64,000 nucleotides of DNA from assembly GCA_965248205.1 (NCBI GenBank), contig CBDFIS010000006.1:6476276-6540275 (forward strand), written 5' to 3'. The position numbers and the translations under genes were made by a program. This stretch comes from Bryobacterales bacterium. GTDB taxonomy: Bacteria > Acidobacteriota > Terriglobia > Bryobacterales > UBA6623. The notes below the pieces were generated by a model. It made no database searches and was not told the origin of the DNA. It was given only the letters and a program-made list of their open reading frames with translations. The first letter of the stretch is position 1. Each line of letters starts with the position of its first letter. Positions 7,669 to 64,000 of this stretch are shown piece by piece.

Positions 7669-7671
7669 ATC

Positions 7672-8349: not shown

Positions 8350-8769
8350 CCGGCTGGTGGTCTGATTCAAAAACAACGCCATAAACGACGAGTCCGGCAT
8401 GCCACGCATGAAGACATGCCAGCCAGCCTTGCCTTTCCGAGCCTTGTAGGAGCTTAACCCCTGGAACTGAAGCGAAACCTCCGGTCCCGAACGGCCCCCG
8501 GCGACCTTCGGCACCGAAGTGAACTGATTGGCTTTGATCGGCGGCACCTCCAGGCCAGCGACCTGCCCGGCCGAATCCTGAAGATGTGTCACTGTTTCCA
8601 CCCCAGAAGAACCGACACCAACCTCGACGGCTATACCCCGAACCGAAGGGAATGGGCGTGGAAGAAGAAGTCCGCACGCACCACTACTTCGCCCGACCAA
8701 AACTGGTGGCAACAGCCCACCGACCCTGAAACGAGAATTCTAAGTGACTTTCTAGATGATCGAATTAGT

Positions 8770-11146: not shown

Positions 11147-11209
11147 GCTGGTCGAAAGCCCTTTCCGGTAAACAGTGTAGCAACTGGGCCGGAGCGAGCG
11201 GCGACGACG

Positions 11210-40612: not shown

Positions 40613-41767
40613 GTCTCCTGTCCGGGCTAACTCTTTACAATAGCTTCTTTGCAGCGGCGCACCTTGTCGAGAATGACATCCGCAGTGGCTTTCCAAACAA
40701 ACGGTTGGGGGTCGTGGTTCCAGATGGCCAGCCACTGATAGATCGCTCGCTCCAGTTCTGCCACACAATGGAAGGTTCCTCGGCGGATCATGCGGTCGGT
40801 GAGGAGCCCGAAGAGACGTTCGACTTGGTTGAGCCAGGAACTGCTGGTGGGCGTGAAGTGAAAGTGGAAGCGGCGCCGCTTTTTGGGTTGCAACCAGCGC
40901 TGGACGGCCGCGCTTTTATGGCTGGAGTAGTTGTCCATGATGAGGTGAACTTCTTGATCCAGCGGCACCTCTCTTTCCACTTGGTTGAGAAACCTGACGA
41001 ACTCCTTGGCGCGATGCCGAGGCAGACAACTGCTAATCACTTTCCCGTTCAGGATGTTGAAAGCAGCGAACAAGGTGGTGGTTCCGTGGCGCTTATAATC
41101 GTGCGTTTGTCGCTGTGGCAAGCCGGGCCGTAACGGCAGAATCGGAGCCGTTCGGTCCAGGGCTTGGATTTGGCTCTTCTCATCCACGCACAGCACCAAA
41201 GCCCGGTCGGGCGGATGCAGATACAAGCCCACGATGTCCCGCACCTTCTCTTCGAACTGCGGGTCCTGGGAGAGTTTGAATTTCTCTACCCGATGGGGCT
41301 GCACCTCGTAACGTTGCCAAACCCCATGCACGAGCGTGCGGCTCACACCGAGATGCCGGGCCAGGGTGCGCACACTCCAGTGGGTCGCATCCGGCGGCCT
41401 GGTCTTCAAGGTCGTATCGAGAATCTTCTGCTCCAACTCGGGCGTCAACACACGTCGCGAGCGCTGGCGTTTTTGCCGCCGCCGGATCGCCTCCACCCCG
41501 CCCCGCGCGAAGGCGGCTCGCGTCGCGATCACGGTCGGACGCGACAAGCCGATCTGCTGCGCAATGGCGTGGTTGGGCACTCCCTCGCCAGCCAGCAAGA
41601 TCAGCTGGCATTTCCGCGCCAACATCTGCGGCGTGCTTCCGGCACGGGCCATCGATTCCAGTACCTGTTTCTGCGCCGGATTGATGGCAAGCGGAGTCGC
41701 TGGGGTGAACATGCCCCATTACATCATGATCCCGCTATATTGTCAATAGTTATAACGGACAGGACAC
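40613..41767 (-). mobile_element. IS630-family element type a, copy 2 (transposase 40627-41712)
   Basis: Same IRs and transposase as 23606-24760; TA duplication in CTAG (40610-40613 / 41767-41770). Confidence 0.95.
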
Positions 41768-49103: not shown

Positions 49104-50174
49104 TTAGGACGGACCGACCGATCCGGCCGGGGCGGGGTCTTTTTGTAGTGCGTCCTTTTCCTTGGACTTGAGCAGATCTAGCGCCACATCGACGATCATG
49201 TCTTCCTGGCCCCCGACCATGCGACGGCGACCCAACTCGACCAAGATCTCGCGCGTATCTATGCCGTACTGTTCGGAAGCCTTCTCGGCGTGCCGCAAGA
49301 AGCTCGAGTAGACCCCTGCGTAGCCGAGGGAGAGTGTCTCGCGATCGACGCGGACAGGGCGGTCTTGGAGGGGACGGATCAGGTCTTCCGCGGCATCCAT
49401 GAGTGCGAACAGGTCGCAACCGTGCTGGAAACCGAGCCGATTCGCAACCGCGATGAATACTTCCAACGGAGCGTTGCCCGCACCAGCTCCCATACCGGCG
49501 AGCGAGGCGTCCACGCGCCGCGCACCGTGCTCGATCGCGACAAGAGTGTTTGCGACGCCCAACGACAGGTTGTGATGGGCGTGCATGCCCTTCTGGGTCT
49601 CCGGCTGGAGCACGTCCGCGAAGGCCTGGAATCGTTCCGCGACGTCTTGCGTCAGCAGGGCCCCCGCGCTGTCGGTCACGTAGACACAGTGCGCGCCGTA
49701 GGACTCCATCAGCTGCGCCTGGCGAGCCAGCTCCCGAGGCGGCGTCATGTGGGCCATCATCAGAAAGCCGGCAACGTCCATGCCCAGCTCACGGGCGCAC
49801 TCGATGTGCTGCTTGGCAACATCCGCTTCCGTTGAGTGGGTCGCAACTCGAACCGAGCGCGCCCCGGCCTGATAGGCTTTCTTCAAGTCCTCGATCGTTC
49901 CGATTCCCGGTAACAACAGCGCGGTAACCGTGGCCTGCTTCACGTTCTCGGCAACCGCGGCGATCCACTCGTAGTCGGTGTGCGCGCCTACGCCGTAGTT
50001 GAAGCTCGACCCCGCCAGTCCGTCGCCGTGCGTGATCTCGATCGCGTCCACGCCGGCCGCATCGAGGGCCCGGGCGATCTGGGCCGCTTGCTCGGCGGTG
50101 TATTGGTGACGGATGGCATGCATGCCGTCCCGCAAGGTGACGTCCTGGATGTAGAGTTTCGGTTTGTCGTTCAT
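49104..50174 (-). CDS. dmpG: 4-hydroxy-2-oxovalerate aldolase
   Basis: [43 protein letters not shown]. Confidence 0.95.
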
Positions 50175-51109
50175 GCGGGCGCCCCCTGTGACACCAGTCG
50201 CTCGGAAAGTCGTTCGCCCGTGGCGAGGGCGGCGGAGGTCATGATGTCGAGATTGCCGGCGTAGGCCGGCAGGTAGTGCGCTGCCCCTTCGACCTCGAGA
50301 TAGACCGACACCTTGAGGCCTCCCGCCGGCAGCGGCTCGGGAAGGGCGTGGCTCTGGTCGGGGGCGATCGGCTCGAACTGGACGTCCTGTTTGAGCCGGT
50401 AGCCGGGAACGTATTGCTGGACCTCCTGAACGGTGGCCTCGATCGAGCGGGCGATGGCATCCGTGTCCGCCAGGTCCGTCAAACAGAAAACGGTATCGCG
50501 CATGACGAGCGGCGGTTCCGCGGGGTTCAGGACAATAATCGCCTTGCCCCGGCCCGCGCCGCCAACCACCTCGAGGCCTCGGGCCGTTGTCTCGGTGAAC
50601 TCATCGATGTTCGCGCGCGTGCCCGGGCCGGCGGACTTACTCGCGATGGATGCCACGATCTCCGTGTAGTGAACCGGCGTTACGCGCCCCACGGCGGCGA
50701 CAATGGGAATCGTCGCCTGCCCGCCGCAGCTCACCATATTCAGATTGGGTTCCTCGAAGTGTTCGCCCATATTCACGATGGGGACTACATACGGGCCAAT
50801 CGCAGCGGGCGTTAGGTCGATAATGCGCTTGCCGCGCTGCCGCAAAACCGCGTCGTGGGGTCCGTGCGCCTTCGCCGATGTCGCATCGAAAACGATTTGG
50901 ACCTTGGAGAACGCGGGCATGTTAACGAAATCGTCAATGCCTCCGTGCGTCGCCGGCACCCCCATGGAATGGGCGCGCGCGAGTCCATCGGAGTCCGGGT
51001 CGATGCCCACCAACGCGCCCATCGTAAGCGCATCGGACGACTGCAGAACCTTCATCATCAAGTCGGTTCCGATATTGCCCGACCCGAGAATCGCAACTGA
51101 CGTCGGCAT
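50171..51109 (-). CDS. dmpF: Acetaldehyde dehydrogenase (acylating)
   Basis: [48 protein letters not shown]; 4-bp overlap with dmpG. Confidence 0.95.
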
Positions 51110-51147
51110 GAGGGCTGTAGTGTAGCAATTCCTCCGGAGGGGATAGC

Positions 51148-51254
51148 GACCGGCGAGATCGCCGGTCCCTACTGCCGCAGCTTATGACGACTCAAGTAGG
51201 GACTACTGCCGCGCTTATGACGACTCGAGTAGGGACAAGCGATCCCGCTTGTCC
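51148..51254. repeat. REPIN-like element: two inverted GTAG-type REPs with an internal 33/34-bp tandem duplication
   Basis: Minus: GTAG-GGACCGGCG-ATCT-CGCCGGTC (51172-51148); plus: GTAG-GGACAAGCG-ATCC-CGCTTGTCC (51229-51254); tandem units 51169-51202 and 51203-51235. Confidence 0.75.
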
Positions 51255-51347
51255 AGGGCCCGACATGTCGCGCCCGTACATAATAAGCGGTGCAATGCGG
51301 GGCAAGATCCGTTGCTTCCATCACAGCTCAGGTGAACGGTCTTGCGG

Positions 51348-51902
51348 CTAATTGTGGCACAGCTTACAAGCTTTTTCGCGCGGCAGCGTGAGGAGAGCCT
51401 TTGCCGTGGAACCATGCGCGTTGTGGCACTGGCCGCATTCTTCTAGCATGTGCGGCGGGTGGTCGTGGATACCGGCGAACGTCTCTTGCTCGTGGCAAGC
51501 GAAGCAGCCGCCGGTGAAGCGAAAACGGGCGCGGCGACTCAGTCCGTGGCAGTGCGTACATTCAGTGGCAACAGGTGGGTGGCGACGGAAAGGTTTGAAG
51601 CGGGCAGGAGGATCGTCACCTACATAGAATCGGATTTCCTCTCGACCGCTTTCCCAAACTAACGCCAGGGTGTGTTCACCTGGTGCGGCGTTCGTTGAGG
51701 CATGGAAGACATCGGGAAACGGCTGTTCGACTGGAATCGCCTGGCCGTCCAACTCTAGTTTGCCTCCGGGAGCCGTGGCGACAACACTAAGCTTGCCGGA
51801 GAGCAGCGCGGCGCCGTCTTGGGGTCGAACAATCTTGCCTTCTCTCTCGGCGGAAGCGGAAGTCAGCGACAACAGCGTCAGAAACAATAGACGCTTCGTC
51901 AT
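51348..51902 (-). CDS. Secreted tetraheme c-type cytochrome with N-terminal Ig-like domain
   Basis: Signal peptide; four CxxCH motifs (CTHCH, CFACH, CGQCH, CKLCH). Confidence 0.85.
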   Translation of the reverse strand: MTKRLLFLTLLSLTSASAEREGKIVRPQDGAALLSGKLSVVATAPGGKLELDGQAIPVEQPFPDVFHASTNAAPGEHTLALVWESGREEIRFYVGDDPPARFKPFRRHPPVATECTHCHGLSRRARFRFTGGCFACHEQETFAGIHDHPPHMLEECGQCHNAHGSTAKALLTLPREKACKLCHN

Positions 51903-52669
51903 ATTTGAATCCGGCAGATGTAGCCCGAGTACTTGCTGTTGCTGTCGACGCCCCCGGGGCCAATGCCCGCATCGCAGTAGTAGAAAGCGCCGTTATAGCG
52001 CGTCATGCCATGCGGGTCGGGATCCGATTCCTTCCGAAGCTGCACTGCTTCAATGATACGGCCGTCCTTTGCATCGAGTCGCTGAATCACGTAGTCGTTC
52101 GAGAAAACGCACCAGATCGAGCCGTCATCCCATGCCAGGCCGTGGGCGCGGTCCAAGGTCACAGGAATACTGCGAAGGATGTTGAAATCCACATCGACCT
52201 GGGTCAATTTCTTCAGCGTCAGCGTAGTGACCCACAGCGAATTCTCTGCCCAGGTCAAACCATGAAGACCACCTCTTCCGGGAATCGGGTAGCGCGCAAC
52301 CGTGTTGCCGGATTTAGCATCAATCTTGACGACAGCGCCCGTGGTGCCATCACGGGGACGCGGCTTGCGCCGCAAAGGGGGCCCGTTGGCCGCCATCCAG
52401 AGGAATCCTCCTCCGTAGGCCATGCCGCTGGTGTTGGAAGAGTCGGTCGCGATTTTACGCAACACTTTGCCGCTTTCCCAGTCCAGCAAGTAAGCCACGT
52501 CGGTGATCTGCTCCCCAACCCAAAGGCCCTCGGGCGATGCTTCGAGAGCGTTCGGGTAGCCGTCGGGAGATTTCCACAACGGCTCCACTTTCGGACGATG
52601 GACTGGGTAGTCCTTGGCAACCAGTGTGCCGGCCGCCAGCACGGCGATTAGTTCTCTGCGGGTATACAT
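51899..52669 (-). CDS. Exported beta-propeller protein (Vgb/glutaminyl cyclase-like fold)
   Basis: TRRELI twin-Arg-like signal; repeated G(L/M)AW/Y.DG.LW units; ATGA overlap with the cytochrome gene. Confidence 0.65.
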   Translation of the reverse strand: MYTRRELIAVLAAGTLVAKDYPVHRPKVEPLWKSPDGYPNALEASPEGLWVGEQITDVAYLLDWESGKVLRKIATDSSNTSGMAYGGGFLWMAANGPPLRRKPRPRDGTTGAVVKIDAKSGNTVARYPIPGRGGLHGLTWAENSLWVTTLTLKKLTQVDVDFNILRSIPVTLDRAHGLAWDDGSIWCVFSNDYVIQRLDAKDGRIIEAVQLRKESDPDPHGMTRYNGAFYYCDAGIGPGGVDSNSKYSGYICRIQI

Positions 52670-52680
52670 GGTCAATTGCT

Positions 52681-53859
52681 CTAATCTCGCCACCGAACCA
52701 GTTTGCGATCGATGTCTGAAATCTTGGCCACCCCGGACATTCCCATGTCCAGGGCAAGTTCCGTGCGGAGAAGCTCGAGAACGCGAGAAACGCCCCGCTG
52801 TCCGAAACTAGCCAGCCCCCACAAGTAGGGCCGCGCGATCCCTACCGCGGCCGCGCCCAGCGCAAGCGCTTTCAGAATATCGGTTCCCCGACGGAAGCCG
52901 CCGTCCACCATAACCGGGATCTTTCCCGCGGCCGCCTCGACGCATTCCGGCAAGGCTTCGATCGGCGCGCCGACGTGGTCGAGCTGCCGGGCCCCGTGGC
53001 TTGAGACGATCACCGCCGACATGCCCGTCTCGACGCACTTTTCAGTATCTTCTGCGGTCAGAACGCCCTTGATGACAATCGGAAGGTCGGTTTCGTCGCG
53101 GAGCTGTCGCACCGTGTCCCAGGTCGCGGTGGGGAAGGGCCTCTCCGGATAGTTGCCTGTTCGCCACGCGGTCTCGCCGGGCCGGTAGATCAGATGGCCT
53201 TGGGCATCTCTTGGGATTCCCGTCTCACACCAGCGTCGCACGAACTTATGGCGAATGCTGCGCTCGCGATGGGAGGTGTGCATGATGTCGACAGTAAAAC
53301 AGATGCCGGCGGCCCCCATATCTTCCAGCTTCTCCACGAAATTGAGCATCATGTTCTTGGTGCGGAACTGGCCGCCGGTAGTAAGTTGCCACCAGTTTTT
53401 GGGTCCCTGTCCCGAGGTCAAAAGGGCGTCGATGCCGCCGTTAGTGATCATCATGGCATTCGATTCGGCAGCGGCTTTGGCCACTTCTTCTTCACCATTG
53501 GGGTAGAAACAGTTCTTTCCTCCCGCCGGGCAGATAAAGATGGGGTAGTCCAACGTGCTTCCAACAGCGCTAGTCGAAAGATCGATCTTATGGACGTCGG
53601 TCAAGAACCGAGGCCGGATGATGATGCGGTTGAACGCTTTCCGGCTATCCCGCAATGCGACCTCATCCGCGCCACCCTCGGCCATGTAGTCCCACGCGAC
53701 GGGATCGAGTTTCGATTTCGCTAGCTTGGCGAAGTCGAATACATTGATAAGGTCAAGCAGCGGATCGTCATCAGCGGCCAGGCTCAGACCTTGTAATAAC
53801 GGCGAGGCCAGGAAGAATTGAGCCAGGCCCCGGAGTGCTTGCCGTCGGGTGTGGGTCAT
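52681..53859 (-). CDS. FMN-dependent alpha-hydroxy acid oxidase/dehydrogenase with Tat-like signal
   Basis: TRRQAL; IRPRFL, PIVIKGV, SSHGARQLD, DGGFRRGTDILKALALGA. Confidence 0.9.
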   Translation of the reverse strand: MTHTRRQALRGLAQFFLASPLLQGLSLAADDDPLLDLINVFDFAKLAKSKLDPVAWDYMAEGGADEVALRDSRKAFNRIIIRPRFLTDVHKIDLSTSAVGSTLDYPIFICPAGGKNCFYPNGEEEVAKAAAESNAMMITNGGIDALLTSGQGPKNWWQLTTGGQFRTKNMMLNFVEKLEDMGAAGICFTVDIMHTSHRERSIRHKFVRRWCETGIPRDAQGHLIYRPGETAWRTGNYPERPFPTATWDTVRQLRDETDLPIVIKGVLTAEDTEKCVETGMSAVIVSSHGARQLDHVGAPIEALPECVEAAAGKIPVMVDGGFRRGTDILKALALGAAAVGIARPYLWGLASFGQRGVSRVLELLRTELALDMGMSGVAKISDIDRKLVRWRD

Positions 53860-53910
53860 GCCAACCTACCTAAGCCACCTACAGGTAACCACAGGTGATA
53901 CTAGTGGGTC

Positions 53911-54117
53911 CTAGTTGGGAGACGGTTTGAGGCTCTGCATCACAACCGGGAGGACGAAGAATAGACCGGCCGCGATGCTGATGGCGACTGAATGGAGTAT
54001 GGTATCGTTCCGCCAGCCAGGGTCGCCAAGGAAGCCGCGCCAGCAACCATCGACGATGGGCCACGCAATCGTTGCCGAGGTGAGCCACAGCCCCGCTGTT
54101 TTTGTGGACTTTGACAT
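53911..54117 (-). CDS. Small hypothetical membrane protein
   Basis: 68 aa with two hydrophobic segments; AAGGAG RBS before ATG 54117. Confidence 0.55.
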   Translation of the reverse strand: MSKSTKTAGLWLTSATIAWPIVDGCWRGFLGDPGWRNDTILHSVAISIAAGLFFVLPVVMQSLKPSPN

Positions 54118-54290
54118 GACGTGCTCCTTGGCTAGAGAGTTTACGCGATGAGTTCTTCGATTGTCCACACGTTAGTGGAACCCGTGAAGCCTTCAATCGT
54201 CAAGGACCAGGAATGAGCTGTTCACCTGGCTCCCCGTCCCCGCGCTAAGATCCCACGGGATCTGCAACATACCCTTCAGTGTGCCGCAAA

Positions 54291-55028
54291 CTAACCTGTT
54301 TTGTCGCGGGACGGCGCTCGAAGCTGAATGCAAACTTCGTTGCCGAATGCCGGGAAGATCGCCGCCAAAAACTGGTTGAGGCGCACCCAAGCCTGGTAGT
54401 TCTCCAGGCGGCTGCCGGTCCAGCGAAGGATATGCGAGCCGGCGAAGACCTCCACCTCAAGGCCGAGTCCGGCGGCCAGCCGTTTCCACATTCGCGGATG
54501 GAAGGCGGTGACGTGCTGCCCGAGCTGCCGTCTTCCGGCCTGCAGTTCACGGCCGTATCGCCGCTGATAGTATGCCGCTACGGGCCGCGCCAGTACCGGA
54601 GATCCGACCAGCAAGATTCCGCCCGGCTTGACGACGCGGATTGATTCGCGAAGTGTGTCTTCCGGGTTTCTCAGGTGCTCCAGGATGTGTGAGCAAACGA
54701 TGATGTCAGCCGAGTCGTCGGGAAGTGGCATCGCCTCCTCGAGATTGCATTCGTGAAGTTCGTGATACCCGGCGGCCACTACGTACTCATTAGCGACGTT
54801 GCGGTCCAGTCCGATCCAGCGGGCGTCAGGTACGGGCGGTGCAAGATTTCTTAGCAATCCGATTTCAGAACCGACGTCGATAATGGTGGGTCCGCGGCCA
54901 AGGCGCCTAGCCTCATCGAGGATTGCCTGATAGACCCACCAATAGCGCAGCACCCGGAAGGGGTACTTCGTTCGCTTGGCTCCTTCTCGCAAGGGAAGCG
55001 CCTCCATTGGCGCCCGAAAGTCTTCCAT
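54291..55028 (-). CDS. Class I SAM-dependent methyltransferase
   Basis: IIDVGSEIG, WIGLD, ADIIVCSHILEHL, LKPGG-like VKPGG; start trimmed to ATG 55028. Confidence 0.85.
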   Translation of the reverse strand: MEDFRAPMEALPLREGAKRTKYPFRVLRYWWVYQAILDEARRLGRGPTIIDVGSEIGLLRNLAPPVPDARWIGLDRNVANEYVVAAGYHELHECNLEEAMPLPDDSADIIVCSHILEHLRNPEDTLRESIRVVKPGGILLVGSPVLARPVAAYYQRRYGRELQAGRRQLGQHVTAFHPRMWKRLAAGLGLEVEVFAGSHILRWTGSRLENYQAWVRLNQFLAAIFPAFGNEVCIQLRAPSRDKTG

Positions 55029-55377
55029 GGGAGCCAGCGGCCACGAGAGCAGTTGAAATCGGCGGATGGCTTTCCCTTGCATAAGACGTGTCGGACTCCA
55101 ATCAGGAATTTCCTGAACCTGACAGCACGCAACACCGGGGGGACCTCCGATTTTAGCCGCTTGCCGAGTGGATTGTCGGCGCTGAGCGGCGAGTGTGAGG
55201 CTGTGAAAAACCCCGGGACTGTCCCAAGCGCCTTGCACGGGGGTGGCGTTTTACCAATGATGTACGCGGGGCGCGGGGACTGCACCCAAGGTTTTTTCAC
55301 ACACCCGCGAGCGGTCTAGTCCGCATTTCTCACCAGCGGTCGGCAGGAGTGGAAGCAAATGCCCGCCATTAGTGCTG

Positions 55378-55505
55378 CAGACGCAGCGTTGCAGTAAGAC
55401 AGACGCAGCGTTGCAGTAAGCCGGGCGTACCGTTGCAGTAGAAAGACCCAACCACCGCGCATTCTATCACTTAGACGCACCAAACGGGTCGCGTGTCACT
55501 GCAAC
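55378..55505. repeat. 22-bp-phased direct repeats plus one inverted copy
   Basis: CAGACGCAGCGTTGCAGTAAG twice (55378, 55400); core CGTTGCAGTA at 55387, 55409 and 55431; inverted ACTGCAAC at 55498-55505. Confidence 0.85.
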
Positions 55506-55547
55506 ACACGGCCCGTTAAATGTTTTAGGCTGACGACCACCGAGCCG

Positions 55548-58500
55548 TCATGCGGCCCGCCTCAGCCTTCTGTAGTGGGCGCTCGAAACCTCAGCGGGTA
55601 ACGCCACCGCCCAGCGCAACAGCGCAAGGTGGTCCCATGCCCACCAGGTCACATGCGGTAGCTGCTCACGCAGCCGCGCGATCAGATACTCTTGCTCCCA
55701 CGGCGAGCCGCCGTCGAACCACCCGATCAGGTAGCGCACGTCCGCCTTCGTCCATGCGAACTCGGTGTACGCTAGCTTGATGGCTGCCTCGGCCTTCACC
55801 AGATCCCGATCGGTGCGACCGTGCGCCAGAGCCTCGACCTTCAGGCGGTCAAATCCCGACCCGCTCTTCTGCTTCCATGCGGTAGGCATGTTTACGGCGC
55901 GATTCAAGCGCCCTCCCACCTTCGAGAAGCCCGTCTGCACTGAAACATCCTGGTTTACGTCAGCGGGCCACAGTAGCTCAAATTTGGCCCCTGCATGGGT
56001 GCTCAGAACGTGGGTCCGAATCGCCGCGACGTGATCCTTGAGCCGGTCGGCGAGAAAGTTCGCGTCCGCTGAGCTGTTCACCGTCGGGTCGTCGGTCGGC
56101 AGGATAAAGCTGTCGAGCGCCCGACCGAGCGCCGCCTGCGCCGCCGCCTTCGTCGCGTCGTCGTAGTAGGCCATCCCGCCGTCCGTGTTGGTCGAGGCGT
56201 TGTAGTTCGAGAAGTACCAATGGCCGATCTCACCGATCTGCAACCACACCGGCACACCCGCCGCATTCATCAGATCGGCAAACTCCAGGAACTCTTTCTT
56301 GTGGTAGGCGAGCACGTCGTCGGAAAAGGCTAGCTGCTCGCCGACGAGCGTCCCGAACACGTTCGCCGTGAGCACCTTGTCGCCGTCTAGATAACGCGCC
56401 GTGAAAACCTTCCCGCTCGCCGGGTCGTCGGGCGGATTCGCCATTTCCATATTGAGCGCCTGGACGACGGTCCAGCCCTTCGCTAGGATCTCCCCGTAGA
56501 AGTCGCTGTGCCAGTCACGAGCCGCACGGTTCACCACCTGAGAAGCGGCCTCGTCCACCGTCCATGTCCCCTCGACGCCGCCAGTGAGCGAGCCGCTTTC
56601 GCTGATCGTCCCGCTCGCACTAGACTTGCTGGTCGAGAACGTGAATGAGAACACGGGCGACCGGTTTGTGATCGTCAGAACGTTGCTCGACACCGAGGCC
56701 CGCACGCCGCTGAAGGTCTCGTTAATGAAGCGCTCGAAGTGCGCCGCGATGGTGTCGTTCGTATCTGCCGGGAAAACGCTCTTGCCGATCGTCGTCCCGC
56801 CTATCGCGAGGAAGGCCGAATCCCCGTCCGCCCAAACACCTCCGAACGTGACCGTCACACTGGGGAACGAGCCGCCGACCCGCTTGCGCTCGGAGTGGAA
56901 GTAGATCAGCGTCGCGTGGTTCACGTCGCCCTGAAAACCGGACCACTCGATCGCCTTGACCAGCGCAGTGGGCGCACGCAGGTAGGTCGCATTGGTATCG
57001 AAGTCGGTCGAGATACCGACGTCGGTGTAGACCTGCGGCGCAGCCGGAACGTCGCTCCGCTCGACCACCGCCTCGATCACGTCGACGAACCCGTAGAAGT
57101 CGGACGAAGCCCCGTTCTTCGTGCTCTTCAGCGTCAGCTCTAAGGTGTGCTTTCCGGCAGCGACCGCTGGGCGCACCTTACGTCGCGTCACCACCGGAGG
57201 CTCGGCGTTCAGGTACATATCGAGGTCCGTCTTCGCATCGCCGTCGAGCGACACCTCGAAGATCCCGCGATCACTGTAGAGCGACGTACCCACCTGGAGG
57301 TCATGGGTGTGCTGGCAGTGGTACGTGAAGGTCACTTTATCGCCCGGCGTCGCCGCTCGACGCGCGAAGCCCTGCTCGTAAAAACCGGCCTCATCACTCC
57401 ACGACGAGCCACTATAGACGGCCCACTGATCCCGCGCGCTCACCCGCACCGACTTGTCGAGATCCATCACCTTCAGCGCCCGCTTGCTCTCGGCGTCGGT
57501 GACAGTCCAGTTCGTGACGACCGCCGAGAACTCCTCGGATGTGAACGCGCCGCTGTGAATCAGCCGAGGCGCGAAGGTAAGCCACGCTTGCCGGACGCTC
57601 GTGATTCCAAGCGCCGAGAAGTCGAGGGTCACCTGCCATGTCGTAGACGAGTCCCCGCCCGTGAACGCAACACTCGCTTGCGTGGTCTTCAGATTGTTGT
57701 TTTTCCAGATCGAAGACATCTCGATCGAGTTGCCGTCGTAGCCGCCACGCTCGGCGAGATACAGCACGTTGGTTTGACTTCCGGCGCTCGCCGTTAGGGT
57801 AATCTGCGTCGGTGAGTCCACGGTCGAGACGGTGTAGGGGACCTGGTTGATTCGGATCGTCGAGCTACCCGCGATCCCTGGGAACTTCGCGCCGCTCACC
57901 CACGTAACCGTCGTCCCGCTGGTGTCTACGCGGCCCGCTCGCTCGGCCTTGATCGTGAGGTTGCTGCCAGAGCGATCCGCGCGTAGAGCAAAGGGACTGT
58001 CGCTGGTCCAGTCGCGGTTATTGATCTGGTCGCGGATGTCGTCGATGGCCGCGCCCAAGGGGTCGCCGCTCGGGGGGTCCGTCACGATGTGATCAAAAGC
58101 TAGGTTTTGGAACCACAGCGTCACGCGATCGAATGCCTGAATTCCGTTGTCCTCGAAGGTGAACGTGCCCGAGGCGACGCCGAGCGTGCCGCCGACTTTC
58201 TTCGCGTGATCAAAGAGCTTCACGGTCGCCGTGGAGCCGTCTTGCTTGATCACCTGCAATAGATCGGCCTTCGTGAAGTCCACGAAAAACGGACTGTCGA
58301 GCGGAAACACGTTCGTGTAGGCCACATCGAACTTGAGCGTCAAGCCGCTGAAATCGAAGTCCGGCAAGTAGCGCCAGCGCGGGTGCCCGAAGGGGTCATC
58401 GGCGTCGTAGAGCACCAGCACGGCAAAGTCCGCCGAGTCTTTCCACACGCCGCTAACAGTGAAGCCCGAGGCGCTCGCGGAATGCAGCGCCGCCGCCGCG

Positions 58501-58565
58501 CCCCGGCGATCGAACCCGCGAAGGTGCATCGTGAGATAGTCGAGCTTTCGGAGCGTGTCAGACAC
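55548..58565 (-). CDS. Large tail-associated protein (non-contractile-tail-associated TIM-barrel-like C-terminus, CBM-like central domains)
   Basis: 1005 aa; GHPRWRY...DFSGLTLKFD and VWLQIGEIGHWYF...FDRLKVEA resemble alphaproteobacterial GTA/phage tail proteins (recalled similarity, not searched). Confidence 0.6.
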   Translation of the reverse strand: MSDTLRKLDYLTMHLRGFDRRGAAAALHSASASGFTVSGVWKDSADFAVLVLYDADDPFGHPRWRYLPDFDFSGLTLKFDVAYTNVFPLDSPFFVDFTKADLLQVIKQDGSTATVKLFDHAKKVGGTLGVASGTFTFEDNGIQAFDRVTLWFQNLAFDHIVTDPPSGDPLGAAIDDIRDQINNRDWTSDSPFALRADRSGSNLTIKAERAGRVDTSGTTVTWVSGAKFPGIAGSSTIRINQVPYTVSTVDSPTQITLTASAGSQTNVLYLAERGGYDGNSIEMSSIWKNNNLKTTQASVAFTGGDSSTTWQVTLDFSALGITSVRQAWLTFAPRLIHSGAFTSEEFSAVVTNWTVTDAESKRALKVMDLDKSVRVSARDQWAVYSGSSWSDEAGFYEQGFARRAATPGDKVTFTYHCQHTHDLQVGTSLYSDRGIFEVSLDGDAKTDLDMYLNAEPPVVTRRKVRPAVAAGKHTLELTLKSTKNGASSDFYGFVDVIEAVVERSDVPAAPQVYTDVGISTDFDTNATYLRAPTALVKAIEWSGFQGDVNHATLIYFHSERKRVGGSFPSVTVTFGGVWADGDSAFLAIGGTTIGKSVFPADTNDTIAAHFERFINETFSGVRASVSSNVLTITNRSPVFSFTFSTSKSSASGTISESGSLTGGVEGTWTVDEAASQVVNRAARDWHSDFYGEILAKGWTVVQALNMEMANPPDDPASGKVFTARYLDGDKVLTANVFGTLVGEQLAFSDDVLAYHKKEFLEFADLMNAAGVPVWLQIGEIGHWYFSNYNASTNTDGGMAYYDDATKAAAQAALGRALDSFILPTDDPTVNSSADANFLADRLKDHVAAIRTHVLSTHAGAKFELLWPADVNQDVSVQTGFSKVGGRLNRAVNMPTAWKQKSGSGFDRLKVEALAHGRTDRDLVKAEAAIKLAYTEFAWTKADVRYLIGWFDGGSPWEQEYLIARLREQLPHVTWWAWDHLALLRWAVALPAEVSSAHYRRLRRAA

Positions 58566-58576
58566 ACTAAGTCATT

Positions 58577-59593
58577 TCAGCTTCTAAGAAACGCATCTGC
58601 CTTCTGCTGCCGGATGAAATCGGTGAATCCGCCGTCAAATGCCTCGATCTCTCGATGGGGTACGGATTTTCGCAGCTTGTCACGAACTTTCCCCGCCGTG
58701 TCCTTGCCACTCGCAACGACCATGAGACTCACTTCGCGTCGCACGTTCTTCTTAAGGAGATCAAGAAACGGGATTTCACTTGCTCGCCATCCGATCGACA
58801 GTAGCCTCGTGACTTTTGGGAGGCACGCGCGCAATGCCTGGAGGTGTTCATCTGGGCACTCGTGATGGCGCTTGGTCTCAACCGGGATAGCCAAAGCGGG
58901 GAAAAGATCAATCTCCTTCACTACTCCGCTGACGACGTTCGAGGTGATCACGCGGTACCGCTGGCTGACCTTGAGATTCGGTGCTCGCTCTATCAGTTCT
59001 TGGGCGATCTGCTCGGAATTGAGACTCCCACTCGGAAGTACGTCATCTAGTTCGCGCCCCCAATTGACCGACCCGTGGATCTTTATGAGCTTCCACTCAT
59101 CGCCTGAGATGTAAGCGTTGATGTCCCCGATCGGCTTGCCAATTGTGCCGAGAGCTCTGTCTAGGAGCGTGTCATAGTTGAAGGTGACTAGGCAGGTTTC
59201 CTCTCCTTTGCTAGAGTGCCTTATCTGGTCAAGGAGGGTCGCATAGTTCGTTACTCCTCTTGTGACGTTGTTCCAGCGGTCGACACATTCCGAAAGCATC
59301 ACTTGAAGGTAGAAGCGTATCGCCGCAAGTTGGCGGTGTCGCTCGGGGTCGCGGTCGGACTGAGAATTAAACTCTTCGAGTCGCTGCTCTACTGAGACGC
59401 CCTTTGGACGGTGCCGGAGAGGGTCAATGATCGGCAGACACCGTCGAAACCTGGAGGCAACTTGGCTGAACTCATCCCTGTCGGCGAACAGTTCATCTGC
59501 AAGCGGTGGCCGGTGCCGATGCGGCTTTAAACCTGGTGGGAGCGACGGAGCGGAATCGTACGAGGCACCTGCCCCGAAGATCACCATCAGCAT
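58577..59593 (-). CDS. SIR2-like (SIR2_2) protein
   Basis: VIFGAGAS, TFNYDTLLD, IKIHGSVNW, LSIGW motifs. Confidence 0.85.
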   Translation of the reverse strand: MLMVIFGAGASYDSAPSLPPGLKPHRHRPPLADELFADRDEFSQVASRFRRCLPIIDPLRHRPKGVSVEQRLEEFNSQSDRDPERHRQLAAIRFYLQVMLSECVDRWNNVTRGVTNYATLLDQIRHSSKGEETCLVTFNYDTLLDRALGTIGKPIGDINAYISGDEWKLIKIHGSVNWGRELDDVLPSGSLNSEQIAQELIERAPNLKVSQRYRVITSNVVSGVVKEIDLFPALAIPVETKRHHECPDEHLQALRACLPKVTRLLSIGWRASEIPFLDLLKKNVRREVSLMVVASGKDTAGKVRDKLRKSVPHREIEAFDGGFTDFIRQQKADAFLRS

Positions 59594-59629
59594 TGGCTCA
59601 CCCTAGCACGGCCTTTGACCAGAGGCACC

Positions 59630-61780
59630 TCAGAATCTCACGCTCGCGACCAGCCGCTCGCCGGGAAAATCCGAGCCGACTTGGGTCAAGTCGATCGACA
59701 CGGGCGTATCTTTGTTGACGAAGCCCAGCTCGGCGAACGCCGCTGTCGAGCCGCTCGTTTGTCCGGCAGTGATCTTCACGCCGGTAATGACCTTCACGCC
59801 TCCCACAACTACATCGACCAGCAGGTCAGCGCCGGTAGGCGCTTTGTTGTCGTCCACCCGCAGCAAGACGTCTTTGATGGGCATCGCCCGCTCGATGGTC
59901 AGCGGTGGCCCCGCGCTCGACGCGATCGCCAGCAGTCCGTCGATCACAAAGTCGAGCTGCCCGCCGTTGAAGACCCGCAGCCCGTTGTTTTGGAAGCCGG
60001 TTGTGAAGTTGTTCGTCGTCGTCGGTGAATCGCCCTTGCGGTTCGTCACGAAGCAATCAACGGCCACGACACGCTGCCCGCCCAGCTCGGCCTGCCCTTG
60101 CCACGAGCCGCCCACCGAGCCAGCAAGCCCGCTGAAGGCGTTGAAGGGGAACACGAACGGGAAGTCGGTGCGCGTGATCCCCCACAGCTTCGCGCCCGAC
60201 GAGTGCGCCTCGGCGGTCGAGCCTTCCTGGGCGCGCGCGACGGTGATCGCGTTGCCGGTGATCGTGTCCACCTTAACGATCTCGCCGCCGATCGCCACCA
60301 GCTCGCCAGCCGTGAGCTTCGTACCATCGGCCACTGTCCACGAGGTTGCGCTCGTGTCTACCGCCGTGCTCAGGGTCGTCGCCTCGCTTGCGATGTCACT
60401 GCGGTGATGGACCTGGAACGTCGCGGTGTCGATGAACTTCGTCGAGTTGTCGAGCTGAGAAAACCCGATCCCCGCGAAGCGTACAAGGCCGTCTTGCTGA
60501 ACCGCTACGCCGAAGCTCGGGGTCGGTGGACGTGCGATCGCCGAAACGATCACGCCGCCTTCAAAGTCCTGGTTCGGATCAGCCGCGTCGGTGAACGCGG
60601 CCACGTCGTACTCTTGCAACAAAAACTCGCGCTCTTCGCCCGGAAGCTCCCCGGCCTCGATCACCTCGAAGGCTTTCTTGCCGTCCCATGGCGCGAGCGT
60701 GTGCTCCACATCGACGCGATCGCCGGGCAGTAAGTGGATCGAGTCCTGCAACCCGCGCAGGCTCACCATACGACGGTCATCGACCGCGCGGGTGAGGAAG
60801 TAAGTGCCTATCCGCCGCGCCTGTTGCTGGGTCGTGTTGCCGAGGTCGAGTTCCTTCTCGATCACCTTGCCGATGAGATCCTGCGCCGACTCCCGCTCGC
60901 CGAAGATGCTCGCGACAGCGAAATCGTTGTCGAGATCCCGGAACTTGAGCCGCAGCCTGTTGGTAGCAGCACTGATGTCGCGCGTCCAAAACCGAAAAGA
61001 CCCGTCCCCGACGTTGGAAGGAACCTTGTCGGTGAAGGTGTGCGACGCGACGCGCGTTTGGTCGATGCGGATCGAGATTTTTCCTCCGTCATCCATGAGG
61101 AAGCCCCGACAAGTATTCAAGAGCGCTTGAAGCGCTTCGCCGAAACTGACCTGCTTCGGAAAGGCGACGTGGCTCTCGAAGCGTGTAACCGTCTGGCTGT
61201 TGACCGTGATTTGCGCGTCGCAGTAAGCGGCCTCGGTTGCAAAGGACGCGAAGTCGATCCGGCTGGTCGGCTCGCGCATGAGCAGCATGTCGAGGACCTG
61301 CCACACCGGGTTAGCGCTGTAGACGGTCGAGAGCGGCGTTCCGTTCGGGTCGTAGGTCCCGACCTTGCGTGTCTTGTATTTCCCGAGAACGAGGAACTCG
61401 CTCGTCGGAGCCTCGATGTCCTCTGTCGATCGGATCGCGACGTAGGCCGTACGGGAGAAGGTGAGGCCCTGAATTTCAGCGGGAAACCAGAGGTCGATCT
61501 TCTGGTCGCCATCGACGCCGCCCGTGCCGGTCTCGCCGTCTTTGCCGGGATGAAAGTGGAATTTGTCGCTGGCGAGCACCAGGCCGTTCAAGCGAAGCTC
61601 TTCCACGCTATCCCACTCACCCTCGCCGAGCGCGACCATCAGGATCGTGACGTTGTTTGTGGCGTCGTCATCACGCAGAACAACGTTGCCCGCGACCAGG
61701 TGACGACCGTAGGCGAGCGCCACCGGCTTGTTCTGGCTGGCCGTCAAGCGATCGAGGAGTTCCGTCGTTATGAGACTCAT
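59630..61780 (-). CDS. Phage tail tip/host-specificity protein (J-like, Phage-tail_3 type)
   Basis: KPVALAYG, ALGEGE, NPVWQVLDML, IDFASF...AAYCD, RLRLKFRD, LLPGDRV. Confidence 0.85.
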   Translation of the reverse strand: MSLITTELLDRLTASQNKPVALAYGRHLVAGNVVLRDDDATNNVTILMVALGEGEWDSVEELRLNGLVLASDKFHFHPGKDGETGTGGVDGDQKIDLWFPAEIQGLTFSRTAYVAIRSTEDIEAPTSEFLVLGKYKTRKVGTYDPNGTPLSTVYSANPVWQVLDMLLMREPTSRIDFASFATEAAYCDAQITVNSQTVTRFESHVAFPKQVSFGEALQALLNTCRGFLMDDGGKISIRIDQTRVASHTFTDKVPSNVGDGSFRFWTRDISAATNRLRLKFRDLDNDFAVASIFGERESAQDLIGKVIEKELDLGNTTQQQARRIGTYFLTRAVDDRRMVSLRGLQDSIHLLPGDRVDVEHTLAPWDGKKAFEVIEAGELPGEEREFLLQEYDVAAFTDAADPNQDFEGGVIVSAIARPPTPSFGVAVQQDGLVRFAGIGFSQLDNSTKFIDTATFQVHHRSDIASEATTLSTAVDTSATSWTVADGTKLTAGELVAIGGEIVKVDTITGNAITVARAQEGSTAEAHSSGAKLWGITRTDFPFVFPFNAFSGLAGSVGGSWQGQAELGGQRVVAVDCFVTNRKGDSPTTTNNFTTGFQNNGLRVFNGGQLDFVIDGLLAIASSAGPPLTIERAMPIKDVLLRVDDNKAPTGADLLVDVVVGGVKVITGVKITAGQTSGSTAAFAELGFVNKDTPVSIDLTQVGSDFPGERLVASVRF

Positions 61781-62568
61781 TCCGGTTCTGGGGATTCACT
61801 CTGCGGGGCTTCATCGGTTATCGTTTCGATCCCACTCGGAACACCGTACTTCTGCTGATACTGATCGTTAAGTCTCTTGCCAACGACAAACAGTTGCTGC
61901 ATAGCGGGAAGCACAACTGGATCTTGCCGGAAACGGCCATCGAAGCAGCGGTCAAAGGCATCGAGAATCCTGCCGTGGACGGCCCCCAATGTGATGAATT
62001 GCCGCTCGATCTCACGATCGTTCGTGTGAAAATAGTTGAGGTGCACCTCGCCTTTACCCTCTCCAAGAGTCTTCCATTGCCAGTCAAGGCTGTCATAGAA
62101 CTCAGGTGTGAAGTGGACGGATGCGTCTGACAGTACGCCGAGAAAGAGATCCATTGTGTCGATCAAAGGATCACCACGTACCGCTTTGAGCTGGACTTTG
62201 AAGTGCTTGGGCTTCTCGCCCTTTTGCCTCGCCAACCACCGTTCATGACGTTCTTGAAAAGCCGTCCAGCGTTCAGCATTCTCACCATCGAGTTTGATTG
62301 CTAGAGCGGTCTTTGCGGCCTCAACTGCTCTCCGGGTGATGGCAACAGAGTCCTCTGGCTGCCTTTCCAAGATCAGCATGGCTGCCGATAGAAGGGACTT
62401 ATGACAGATGAGGAGAATCCGACCAAAGGTTGTGGGGTAGCCTTCAGACGGCACGCTTCTAATCGCTACCTTGTAGGCTGCATTTATTGAACCGATCAAA
62501 TCCTTAAAATAGGGATTTCGTCTACTGCCATCGAGATTCGCTCTCCGTGCCTCGATGAATCTGTCCAT
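61777..62568 (-). CDS. Alpha-helical HEPN-like/DUF5677-like protein
   Basis: AITRRAVE and LSDASVH match the R..(l)E and S..vH pattern of DUF5677-like HEPN proteins (inference); stop overlaps the J start (ATGA). Confidence 0.5.
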   Translation of the reverse strand: MDRFIEARRANLDGSRRNPYFKDLIGSINAAYKVAIRSVPSEGYPTTFGRILLICHKSLLSAAMLILERQPEDSVAITRRAVEAAKTALAIKLDGENAERWTAFQERHERWLARQKGEKPKHFKVQLKAVRGDPLIDTMDLFLGVLSDASVHFTPEFYDSLDWQWKTLGEGKGEVHLNYFHTNDREIERQFITLGAVHGRILDAFDRCFDGRFRQDPVVLPAMQQLFVVGKRLNDQYQQKYGVPSGIETITDEAPQSESPEPE

Positions 62569-62592
62569 GGCGGGTTCTCCAAGAAAATGGCC

Positions 62593-63261
62593 TTAGATAA
62601 ACTCCCAAGGCGGATGCATTTCACCGGGGAAAAACGTCGTCGGATTCACCGGCTCGGGCGTCGGCACCGGGGGAACCTGCTCGGTGAGTTCCCGCGTGAG
62701 GTGAATAAAGCCGTTGAAACGGTGCGTCTGCGCCCGCGCCGTGCAGTCGGTGAAGGTCTTGTTGCAGACGGTGAACTCCGTCCCCGTGTAGCCGCACTCG
62801 GTGCTCTTGAACTTCCAGCTGCATTGTTGCGAGTAGACCCGCTCGGGGATGCGCCGCGCTGTCGGATCGAGTCCCGAGATCAACACCAGCTCGGCGTGCC
62901 GCCGCTCGATGCGGCACGAGGCCACGCGCCCATCGAAGACCACGACCGCCTCGTCCGCCTCGGCGTAGAGTCGTCGCAGTTTCGCAGTTGCACCGTCGAG
63001 CGTGACCGTCTTCATCAAGTCGGTGAAATAGAGGCTCGTGTTCTCGACGACAACCACAGCGCGGTCGAGCTGGAGCGAGCGGTGCTGTGTGAGTGAGTCC
63101 TCGAAGGTGAGGCGCGGAAGGTAGTCGTTTCCCCCAAAGCGCATCGTCATGTCGGCAAAGTAGAACGGCTGCGCTCCCGCCACGACGTCGAGCAACAGAT
63201 GGGTGTGGGCCTGGTTCGTGTTCTTGGCAGCGGTGAGCGTCGATGAGAGGGATCGGGGCAT
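62593..63261 (-). CDS. Minor tail protein L-like (DUF2163/BR0599-type) with C-terminal 4-Cys motif
   Basis: VFDGRV...QQCSWKFKSTECGY...CNKTFTDC...RFNGF, as in the Fe-S-binding C-terminus of lambda gpL. Confidence 0.85.
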   Translation of the reverse strand: MPRSLSSTLTAAKNTNQAHTHLLLDVVAGAQPFYFADMTMRFGGNDYLPRLTFEDSLTQHRSLQLDRAVVVVENTSLYFTDLMKTVTLDGATAKLRRLYAEADEAVVVFDGRVASCRIERRHAELVLISGLDPTARRIPERVYSQQCSWKFKSTECGYTGTEFTVCNKTFTDCTARAQTHRFNGFIHLTRELTEQVPPVPTPEPVNPTTFFPGEMHPPWEFI

Positions 63262-63267
63262 TCGATG

Positions 63268-64000
63268 TCACTTCAAGACCACACCGAGCGCAGCGGCGAT
63301 CTGCGGTCCCCAAACGTTAAAGATGCTCGCCGCTGCGCCAGCCATCCCTGCTAACTGGCTGACGCGCTGGAGCATCCGATCGAGTGTTGCCTTGTCGAGC
63401 CGCTCGTCTTCGGATCGGTCTAGTTGCTCCGTGAGTGTTCTGAGAAGGTCAAGAGCTTCGTCGCGCTGGTCGCGGCTGAGCCTCTCACTACTCTTCAGCG
63501 AATCCCTCAATTGAAAGAACCCTTCCACCACAACCACGACGGACACCGGTTCCTGGCGCTGAAGCAGTTTGTCGCCGACTAGCGAAAGCAGCTGATCGTA
63601 CTTTCGCCTGCTCTCTTGCAAGTCCTCTTGTTTGATCTCTAGGATTCTAAGAGTCTGCTCGTGCCTCACTCTCTCTAGTTGGAGTGTCTGTTCAAGTTGC
63701 AGGATGTGGAACTTGTCTGCTAGCAGGTCCTCAGGCTTTTTCCGGCCAACTACGACCAAGCCGTATTCCGTCAAGGTCTCTTCGATTGGCTCCTTCTTCC
63801 CCTCAGGCGTCTCGACAACCATTCTCACCTTGAGACCCTCTTGCTCAATTCGCACTTTGACGGGGATGTGAGGGTACTTTTGCCGGACTACGGTCCCGAA
63901 GTATTCAAGGATCGACAGGCCAGCTTGGTGATGTTGGGGCGGGAATTCGATCTGCCGAACGATTCTGTCTACTGATTCGGCGTTGGCATCATCAACAACC
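63268..64000 (-). CDS. Hypothetical non-structural protein (3' part; open to the window edge)
   Basis: Frame is open from 63999: ...RQIEFPPQHHQAGLSILEYFGTVVRQKYP...VRIEQEGLKVRMVVE..., then a coiled coil and a hydrophobic C-terminal helix. Confidence 0.7.
   Translation of the reverse strand, partial: VVDDANAESVDRIVRQIEFPPQHHQAGLSILEYFGTVVRQKYPHIPVKVRIEQEGLKVRMVVETPEGKKEPIEETLTEYGLVVVGRKKPEDLLADKFHILQLEQTLQLERVRHEQTLRILEIKQEDLQESRRKYDQLLSLVGDKLLQRQEPVSVVVVVEGFFQLRDSLKSSERLSRDQRDEALDLLRTLTEQLDRSEDERLDKATLDRMLQRVSQLAGMAGAAASIFNVWGPQIAAALGVVLK

Follow-up and report, generated by a model that had tools for sequence, protein, structure and literature searches.

Positions 55548 to 64000 of a 64000-nucleotide stretch of a Bryobacterales genome (contig CBDFIS010000006.1; the whole stretch is called the window below) are the surviving right arm, that is, the tail-tip module, of a defective prophage. 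We consider it probable that this arm derives from a Mu-like element carrying variable cargo slots between its tail genes, and, judged from predicted domains, the case for an anti-phage function of the cargo is evenly balanced.

Six co-oriented open reading frames (ORFs) lie on the minus strand of this region: in transcription order, the open end of a pentapeptide-repeat gene, an L-like tail gene, a passenger of 263 amino acids (aa) here called X, a J-like tail gene, a SIR2-family passenger and a large tail gene of 1005 aa (Table 1). The coordinates are those of the original prediction, made from the letters alone, as are the gaps of 6, 24, −4, 36 and 11 bp calculated from them, the negative one being an ATGA in which the stop codon of X overlaps the J-like start. 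The arrangement recurs in four independent assemblies (L001–L004), whose long contigs match window positions 50000–64000 at 99.96–99.98% identity, and an assembly artefact is therefore excluded. By composition the two kinds of gene are distinct, with GC of 0.624–0.626 and third-position GC (GC3) of 0.81–0.83 in the three tail genes against 0.52–0.56 and 0.56–0.66 in the three passengers, so that the AT-richness of the passengers, previously noted by eye, is borne out by measurement. Relative to a reference GC3 of 0.70 ± 0.075 from the 42 other window ORFs, many of which are insertion sequence (IS) copies, the tail genes lie about 1.5 standard deviations (SD) above the host and the passengers 0.5–1.8 SD below it. 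The strict one-to-one interleaving that had been proposed holds for composition, which alternates along the region, but not for gene number, since three pentapeptide genes share a single upstream slot.

All three tail assignments stand, each gene passing its Pfam cut-offs and matching PHROGs. The L-like protein matched Phage_phiJL001_Gp84_N (29.6 bits, cut-off 26), Phage_tail_L (27 bits, cut-off 25) and two tail families, phrog_18 and phrog_778; the J-like protein matched Phage-tail_3 (29.1 bits, cut-off 23) and phrog_31, 'central tail fiber J' (1e-23); and the 1005-aa protein matched TIM-barrel_NCTSP, the 'non-contractile tail sheath protein' family (NCTSP below; 42.9 bits, cut-off 27), and phrog_6040 (3e-20).

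What had been taken for a working phage tail operon is the 3′ remnant of a defective prophage. No head or tube gene was found within 10 kb upstream of the tail arm in L001–L004, and the tape measure at this locus is without its N-terminal two thirds. Upstream in L001–L003, a 246-aa ORF is followed by IS3 and host genes, with the tape measure gone; L004 has a 375-aa ORF whose matches are confined to the C-terminal end of tape-measure PHROGs and after it ORFs of 138, 298 and 246 aa, and a leftward helix-turn-helix-like ORF, apparently cut at its N terminus, abuts the tape-measure fragment. Downstream of 55548 lie host metabolic genes, a methyltransferase, an FMN dehydrogenase and DmpG. As the tube, sheath and head are absent and the tape measure is incomplete, a functional tail operon, tailocin or gene transfer agent (GTA) was rejected as a description of the region. 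The same absences count against another of the readings first offered, in which the passengers would be toxins co-assembled into, or delivered by, a tailocin- or GTA-like particle. Tight coupling to tail-tip genes and a weak match of the pentapeptide β-helices to the tail-fibre family phrog_28766 (E = 3.5e-4) would suit it, but the passengers deviate in composition and have independent homologues outside tail contexts, and X has no structural match among the predicted viral protein structures of BFVD; packaging of the passengers is highly improbable.

Slot contents in related loci

All three window slots differ among the window, its closest lineage (L181–L183, found by a search with the J-like protein) and a diverged orthologous array, L106 (Table 1). 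Between relatives, homology runs exactly up to the upstream tail gene's stop codon and is picked up again with the start codon of the following tail gene, the L-like orthologues being 69–74% identical (L181, L182) and the J-like orthologues 77% (L182), 70% (L181) and 56% (L183). X is missing from four of the five other loci of its own lineage. Since L181 retains a tube gene and a full tape measure of 1102 aa, cargo is present in a more complete prophage too. The opposite pattern, in which every related phage would have each passenger conserved in place and with the same GC, was looked for and is not what these loci contain.

The reading of the junctions as variable slots forming a defence hotspot, one of three originally proposed, thus survives in part: slots vary among relatives whose J-like proteins are 56–77% identical, but their contents are only partly defence-like, and 'accessory-gene hotspot' is therefore the better description. 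The defence-like contents across the lineage comprise TIR, SIR2, Abi_alpha (PDC-S47) and DUF5131 (PDC-M41B). A check of the cargo for recognised defences gave domain-level matches only (TIR to PDC-S66 and ThsB-type models, SIR2 weakly, Abi_alpha and DUF5131), and no complete known defence system was found among it.

With the large tail protein as anchor, 5 IMG/VR, 16 genome and 76 metagenome loci were gathered, the genome loci being nearly all from Bryobacterales or other Acidobacteriota. NCTSP homologues follow a J-type gene in 42 related loci, where the junction is empty (at most 51 bp) in 22 and measures 100–300 bp in 10 and more than 400 bp, with ORFs, in about 10. Inserts at this junction in distant relatives, mostly of lower GC, encode HU, a DnaJ protein, a pentapeptide protein, an N6/N4 methylase, a zinc-finger protein and unknowns; SIR2, X and the pentapeptide–TIR fusions (PRP-TIR) described below were found in none of the NCTSP-anchored loci. 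L and J form one gene of 1251–1368 aa in these NCTSP-defined relatives. The idea that X had split such a fused gene was rejected because L181–L183 carry separate L and J genes with other inserts, and the split is thus typical of the lineage rather than due to X. Among GenBank phages, tblastn returned five remote partial matches to the J-like protein and none to the 1005-aa protein, and scans of IMG/VR with the J-like and the 246-aa proteins gave no match. A literature search on 'non-contractile tail sheath' yielded nothing useful on the Pfam family.

We take the junctions along the series 138-like, 246-like, L-like, J-like and large TIM-barrel protein to be permissive for foreign single-gene cassettes in this phage lineage. 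A cassette begins right after the upstream tail stop codon, brings a short leader (leaders ahead of the window genes are 6–36 nt) and ends right before the next tail start; because cassettes sit exactly between stop and start codons, the tail ORFs stay intact. The flanking conserved tail genes could then act as homology arms through which recombination lets related phages and prophage remnants exchange what the slots hold. Here the slots are filled by two PRP-TIR genes, one pentapeptide gene with a coiled-coil and hydrophobic C terminus, the DUF5677-like X and a stand-alone SIR2.

An alternative interpretation is that the passengers stabilize the operon by addiction, as had also been proposed, or that they are conserved chaperone or structural genes like the lambda K/I analogues. 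A small ORF of about 91–141 aa between L and J in many distant L-like-bearing phage loci, and the GH108 lysozyme gene in that place in L183, could be taken in this sense. However, the relatives show just such piecemeal loss of tail genes, with the passengers whole (L106/L107, L011 and L024–L028), which contradicts addiction, and X, besides its patchy occurrence, is lower in GC and found alone in non-phage islands. We give this alternative almost no weight.

NCTSP-family proteins of 1085–1323 aa are encoded in five further loci (L018 and L020–L023, around locus position 10000) in a conserved, apparently non-phage neighbourhood with opposite-strand ORFs of 244 and about 306 aa upstream, and for many metagenome homologues no J-type neighbour was detected; the family therefore reaches beyond this tail module. 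In one of the four assemblies (L003, 13216–16234), the NCTSP gene is split into ORFs of 118 and 903 aa, by a frameshift or a sequencing error.

Element ends and the proposed Mu-like assignment

The unit ends at 55370, 178 bp past the last tail gene. The end repeats (55382–55440) are unique within the 64 kb, where 0.02 matches would be expected by chance, and are putative transposase-binding sites. The window, L011 and L181 share this right-end architecture and the terminal 9-mer GCAGCACTA, after which they diverge immediately into different flanks, the pattern of an element whose chromosomal insertion sites are unrelated from one genome to another. The spacer that separates the last gene from the repeats has a predicted RNA fold of −44.1 kcal/mol (z = −2.95) with a central hairpin conserved in L011 and L181.

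Both ends can be seen in L004. Its left end carries three inverted, more widely spaced copies of the repeat (59–75, 166–182 and 429–445), and the outermost 26 nt of the two termini match at 18 of 26 positions, an imperfect terminal inverted repeat. The pentamer ATGGC abuts both termini (44–48, and about 16412–16416 after ...GCAGCACTA) in this single insertion, whose ends had been set by eye first. A 5-bp target duplication is a hallmark of Mu. Because of the inverted end repeats and the ATGGC duplication in L004, we read the element as the defective prophage of a Mu-like transposable siphophage, one that would once have moved by transposition. Phage Mu itself has three imperfect repeats near each end (PMC4378225). 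Neither the window nor L001–L004 contains a Mu transposase or ATPase gene. In L011, ORF fragments with a Mu-transpos_C match (25.8 bits, cut-off 21.7) are joined to a remnant of this arm, and L106 has Mu-transpos_C_2 and an IstB-like ATPase beside homologous right-arm fragments.

L004, L011 and L106 are three independent deletion derivatives in which left-end functions are joined to the right arm. On this basis one might imagine the internally deleted element as a mobilizable, mini-Mu-like satellite, transposed and packaged by a helper Mu-like phage and spreading the TIR/SIR2 cargo array and possibly alternative tail-tip proteins, with tail-gene stubs elsewhere serving as homology arms that catch new cassettes from infecting phages; we regard this as quite unlikely.

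A palindromic sequence, GATGTAGGGGCGCGATTCATCGCGCCCGC, lies just outside the element, in the left flank of L004 (1–45) and the right flank of L011 (about 12110–12140); it may be a genomic repeat of the repetitive extragenic palindromic (REP) type and possibly marks a preferred insertion neighbourhood. The L106 array is bracketed by two IS1595-family transposase genes (1–685 and 10646–11413) in a composite-transposon-like arrangement.

Passengers and the erosion of tail genes

The nearest SIR2 homologues, though located in unrelated surroundings, have stubs of these very tail genes beside them. An 83%-identical SIR2 homologue in L026 and L027 has the identical 36-nt leader and 11-nt spacer, then NCTSP codons 1–62 and nothing further. 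Throughout L024–L028, passengers adjoin 70–125-bp NCTSP 5′ stubs and J 3′ stubs, and in L024 and L025 the 5′ 70–125 nt of NCTSP are repeated after successive low-GC passengers. A deletion in L106 joins J residue ~100 to NCTSP residue ~620, and L011 has an internal deletion in NCTSP. The passengers are whole throughout the loci with eroded tail genes. Because tail genes of relatives shrink to stubs around whole passengers, the cargo appears to be what is kept: an internal deletion would have taken the early, head and tube genes, turning the tail genes into relics and sparing the cargo.

L028 corresponds to L025 plus a SIR2 insert of ~1.1 kb just upstream of the NCTSP start codon. Comparison of the two revealed no target duplication and no inverted repeats at the insertion, and transposon-like cassette ends were rejected. 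Synonymous divergence (dS) is 0.24 for SIR2 and 0.73 for the adjacent 63-codon stub. From this mosaic divergence and the lack of transposon-type ends we infer swapping by homologous recombination via the flanking tail genes. The same two loci (L025, 10001–10249; L028, 1492–1755) contain a hybrid ORF of 82–87 aa that joins the N-terminal ~34 aa of NCTSP to the last ~48 aa of J, with the same junction, 92% identical DNA and different passengers after it; this ORF may have been selected as a linker, or may be left over from a deletion between copies in tandem.

By motifs and modelled fold, the 338-aa passenger belongs to the SIR2 superfamily, as first proposed, with the GAGxS NAD-binding loop and the catalytic Asn and His in place. 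Its family (PF13289) has at least 1581 homologues of ~340 aa, and G7-A-G-A-S11, N139, Y140 and H173-G-S are invariant among 54 sequences. The AlphaFold2 model (predicted local distance difference test, pLDDT, 93.4) has as its best Foldseek match the SIR2 of SIR2-HerA (8wld, E = 6e-7, template-modelling score 0.52), with a Foldseek probability of 1.0 both to that SIR2 and to sirtuins. No SLOG or Macro domain was detected on it, the model matching only SIR2-fold structures over its length, and no ThsA model was matched. For these reasons, and because three genes separate TIR from SIR2, a split Thoeris system (TIR plus SIR2) was rejected; the two do not co-occur in L026–L029 or L106. Membership in SIR2-HerA (Nezha) was likewise rejected, there being no HerA domain at the window locus or in four other contexts of SIR2 homologues.

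The surroundings of SIR2 homologues include transposases, a Schlafen-like ORF, DUF4062 and a methylase. In L029 (4797–7486), a 47%-identical homologue is preceded or followed by a weak Schlafen/AlbA_2-like ORF together with one of 231 aa, its opposite flank being occupied by a DUF4062 ORF; an N6/N4 methylase lies close by, and this is a possible uncharacterized defence neighbourhood. The copy in L026/L027 is flanked by ORFs of a 443-aa DDE_Tnp_1_4 type that is also present in the window. The window is unusually rich in IS copies (judged by identical ORF length and GC): a 389-aa DDE_Tnp_1/DUF4372 transposase ORF occurs four times (3648–4817, 15040–16209, 16901–18070 and 18875–20044), the 443-aa ORF three times (20277–21608, 27610–28941 and 32287–33618) and a 361-aa DDE_3 ORF twice (23620–24705 and 40627–41712).

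X has 88 homologues of ~250 aa with no Pfam domain, although DUF5677 is weakly matched by 17 of 48 family members, and its model is confident (pLDDT 92). Foldseek searches of PDB and BFVD gave nothing at E < 0.01, only helical-bundle noise; a PDB sequence search was empty and neither PADLOC nor PHROGs gave a match. Its earlier description as HEPN-like was dropped, since no Rx4-6H pair is found among the invariant residues and no HEPN Pfam or Foldseek match was obtained; the motif GRxLLICH is a majority consensus only, with its R and H less than 90% conserved. Homologues of X lie alone next to HNH/Dcm/Vsr genes, next to a restriction–modification system with an integrase, next to a RepA gene or among ordinary chromosomal genes.

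The gene at 63268, previously listed as a whole gene of unknown function, is the C terminus of a pentapeptide-repeat protein whose frame is still open at the window end; the full gene encodes 418–458 aa in L001–L004, with an N-terminal pentapeptide β-helix, a coiled-coil and a hydrophobic C terminus. Just upstream, outside the window, L001–L004 have two PRP-TIR paralogues and the 246-aa ORF. The paralogues matched TIR_2 (E = 1e-25), the PADLOC models PDC-S66 and ThsB-type TIR and, in PDB, Np275/276 and AbTIR. The TIR and SIR2 proteins would most likely be independent abortive-infection or NAD+-depleting effectors by predicted activity, guarding the lysogen, or the phage's own replication, against competing phages; both the NADase activity and the expression of the cargo are presumed here from sequence.

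Among L001–L004, otherwise more than 99.9% identical, pentapeptide genes differ in length at locus positions ~4700–8500 (400 versus 390 aa and 458 versus 418 aa), which suggests that 15-nt-periodic pentapeptide arrays are unstable in repeat number; in L002, a DDE_3 IS interrupts the third gene. A 27-nt hairpin motif, GRCCGCTCYCTYGCGGTCGCGGCTCTG, occurs in L004 at 2807, 3271 and 3316 (+) and 4832 (−) and in L106/L107 at 4332 (−). It lies at or near the junctions of the tape-measure fragment with the 138-aa ORF, of the 138- with the 298-aa ORF and of the 246-aa ORF with PRP-TIR, the last position being conserved in the diverged array (L106/L107), and is absent from the window. The motif may be a REP-like element, a terminator or a recombination site; an integron-like reading was rejected, there being no integrase and low-similarity copies occurring in unrelated loci, and the motif was left as REP-like.

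Because their homologues occur in non-tail islands, the passengers appear to be independent single-gene cassettes, neither tail components nor parts of one multi-gene system. In a single co-opted system, the TIR/SIR2 NADases would be triggered by the retained tail proteins (L-like, J-like and TIM-barrel), which would serve as scaffolds or, towards parts of an incoming phage, as sensors or decoys. Whole tail ORFs interleaved with effectors in four assemblies, tail genes with a low ratio of nonsynonymous to synonymous divergence (dN/dS) and the order of two PRP-TIR genes, L-like and X kept in the diverged orthologous array are what such a system might leave. However, in that array SIR2 is absent, J is mostly gone and NCTSP is missing its first ~620 residues, and in L003 the NCTSP frame is broken, unless by sequencing error. 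SIR2 and X homologues occur in contexts without any tail gene, close relatives differ in slot contents, and a past as a functional phage would by itself give low dN/dS. We consider a co-opted system very unlikely.

Several points weigh against a defective Mu-like arm with exchangeable and perhaps defensive cargo. The window itself has no left end, repressor or transposase, the Mu-like assignment being drawn from L004 and relatives. Its tail ORFs are intact and have diverged from those of relatives at low dN/dS (0.05–0.23), and the retained tail genes may conceivably still have a role; as a test of relic status, dN/dS was set aside as uninformative, most of the divergence being older than the decay. 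The proposed recombination is read only from cassette boundaries and mosaic divergence. The PADLOC match of the SIR2 passenger is weak (E = 7e-4), no function is recognizable for X, and the defences found active in Enterococcus faecalis did not include a DUF5677 ORF tried there (PMC12632615). In relatives, many slot genes are not defence-like (uracil-DNA glycosylase (UDG), HU, DnaJ, DNA methylase, GH108 lysozyme, YjbR and unknowns). Across 55–64 kb, a scan for sigma-70-like promoters found one site, outside the operon, against 1.6 expected from shuffles, and terminator-like sites numbered 8 against 8.1 expected, so that neither signal exceeds chance, with the caution that the consensus may not fit Acidobacteriota. 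This lack of promoter signal and the tiny gaps leave the cargo with no evident means of expression in a lysogen.

The same lack of promoter and terminator signal makes co-transcription with late tail genes a live rival. The cargo would then serve the phage as late accessory genes, transcribed in lytic growth along with those of the tail and acting in counter-defence, in DNA repair or modification or in excluding co-infecting phages. Co-orientation, 6–36-bp gaps and the ATGA overlap agree with this, as do cargo in the same slots of the more complete L181, the UDG, DNA methylase and HU genes in slots of relatives, and the Mu-like phages of Pseudomonas, whose anti-CRISPR genes lie in a low-GC region of plasticity flanked by morphogenesis genes (PMC4378225). 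However, passengers that stay whole while tail genes decay in several genomes argue for selection that acts in the host when there is no lytic cycle, SIR2, TIR and Abi_alpha are domains typically seen in effectors that protect the host, and X and SIR2 have homologues in non-phage islands as well. Cargo in the service of the phage is therefore unlikely in our judgement, and we retain the defective Mu-like right arm with variable cargo slots as the preferred reading.

Table 1 Features at the right end of the element, with slot orders of related loci (slots read in transcription order)
Feature	Window coordinates	Strand	Remarks
Third pentapeptide-repeat passenger, C-terminal part, 244 codons visible	63268..64000	-	GC 0.554, GC3 0.66
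L-like tail-tip/hub protein, 222 aa	62593..63261	-	Pfam and PHROG matches; GC3 0.825
Passenger X, 263 aa, all-alpha plus one hairpin, distant DUF5677-like	61777..62568	-	GC 0.519, GC3 0.56
J-like central tail-tip protein, 716 aa	59630..61780	-	Pfam and PHROG matches; GC3 0.81
SIR2-family passenger, 338 aa, single-domain candidate NADase cassette	58577..59593	-	36-nt leader; GC 0.556, GC3 0.63
Large distal tail protein, 1005 aa, TIM-barrel domain	55548..58565	-	Last gene, prophage right arm
Conserved structured spacer, hairpin CGGGCCGTGTGTT...GACACGCGACCCG	55445..55547	-	Between last gene and end repeats
Element right terminus, attR-like, three 22-nt-spaced repeats TACTGCAACG[GC]T[AG]CG, ending ...GCAGCACTA	55370..55442	-	
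ATGGC, right copy of 5-bp target-site duplication	55365..55369	-	Basis: L004
L181 slots			246-like / 510 aa / L / 153 aa / J / UDG (opposite strand) / NCTSP
L182 slots			L / ASCH + DUF5131 (PADLOC PDC-M41B, E 1e-119) + ~130 aa / J / 188 aa / NCTSP
L183 slots			L / GH108 lysozyme + 256 aa / J
L106/L107 slots			PRP-TIR x2 + Abi_alpha (PDC-S47, in place of third pentapeptide gene) / L / X / J stub

Relation to known systems

Mini-Mu and other internally deleted Mu prophages keep both ends and the 5-bp duplication and have lost the interior. L004 is alike in keeping both repeat-bearing ends and the duplication, and L011 and L106 in joining A/B-like genes to right-arm fragments; unlike mini-Mu, the derivatives here are natural, cargo-rich and found in Acidobacteriota. 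Lambdoid morons, such as the HK97 gp15 superinfection-exclusion gene in the tail region, classically have their own promoter and terminator. They resemble the passengers as extra genes of deviating GC between structural genes with a (here presumed) benefit to the lysogen, and they differ in that no promoter or terminator is detectable here within gaps of 6–36 bp. Polymorphic toxin loci of the Rhs/CDI type have arrays of orphan cassettes. In both cases cassettes lie beside short fragments of a conserved neighbour that may provide homology for swapping (L024, L025 and L028), but here the stubs derive from a pair of tail genes, no cassette is a toxin tip fused to a carrier, and no immunity genes are evident. 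With Thoeris (ThsA SIR2-SLOG plus ThsB TIR) and SIR2-HerA, the cargo shares the expected TIR/SIR2 NAD+-processing chemistry; it differs in having no SLOG/Macro sensor, no HerA gene and TIR and SIR2 genes that are not adjacent.

Regions of genomic plasticity are known from the Mu-like siphophages of Pseudomonas aeruginosa (D3112, B3, DMS3 and PaMx73; Cazares et al. 2014, PMC4378225). Those phages, too, are transposable and flexible-tailed with a tail module in the right arm, and their core is broken at fixed positions by variable, often low-GC ORFs, with no recognizable recombinase target at the borders and with some cargo engaged in phage–host conflict (anti-CRISPRs there). Their plasticity regions, however, are concentrated in the head module and left arm and usually contain a single short ORF, whereas here four consecutive tail-tip junctions are filled, with large enzymes (TIR, SIR2), in a deletion remnant from an acidobacterial host. 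The hotspots of P2-like prophages and P4-like satellites (Rousset et al. 2022, PMC9122126) are likewise fixed loci of variable content, where anti-phage systems reside and cargo benefits the lysogen; they are two discrete loci per P2 genome with defence shown experimentally, whereas the present locus is a run of adjacent single-gene slots in which defence is proposed from domains and many genes are not defence-like.

If our reading is true, the Mu-like tail-tip module of Acidobacteriota, a poorly studied phylum, is a multi-slot carrier of swappable accessory genes, and host genomes retain its cargo even as the scaffold of the phage decays to stubs. It would also offer a handle for gene discovery, since DNA between the 3′ end of a J-type gene and the conserved 5′ end of the TIM-barrel gene would be candidate conflict cargo, including the stand-alone SIR2 family of ~340 aa (at least 1581 members), pentapeptide–TIR fusions and the DUF5677-like family. 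The region is a variant of known phage accessory-gene hotspots rather than a new machine or mechanism; what distinguishes it is that four successive right-arm junctions between tail-tip genes are in use, that packing is tight and promoter-less, that the cargo differs in size and type, and that remnants of its cassettes are flanked by stubs.

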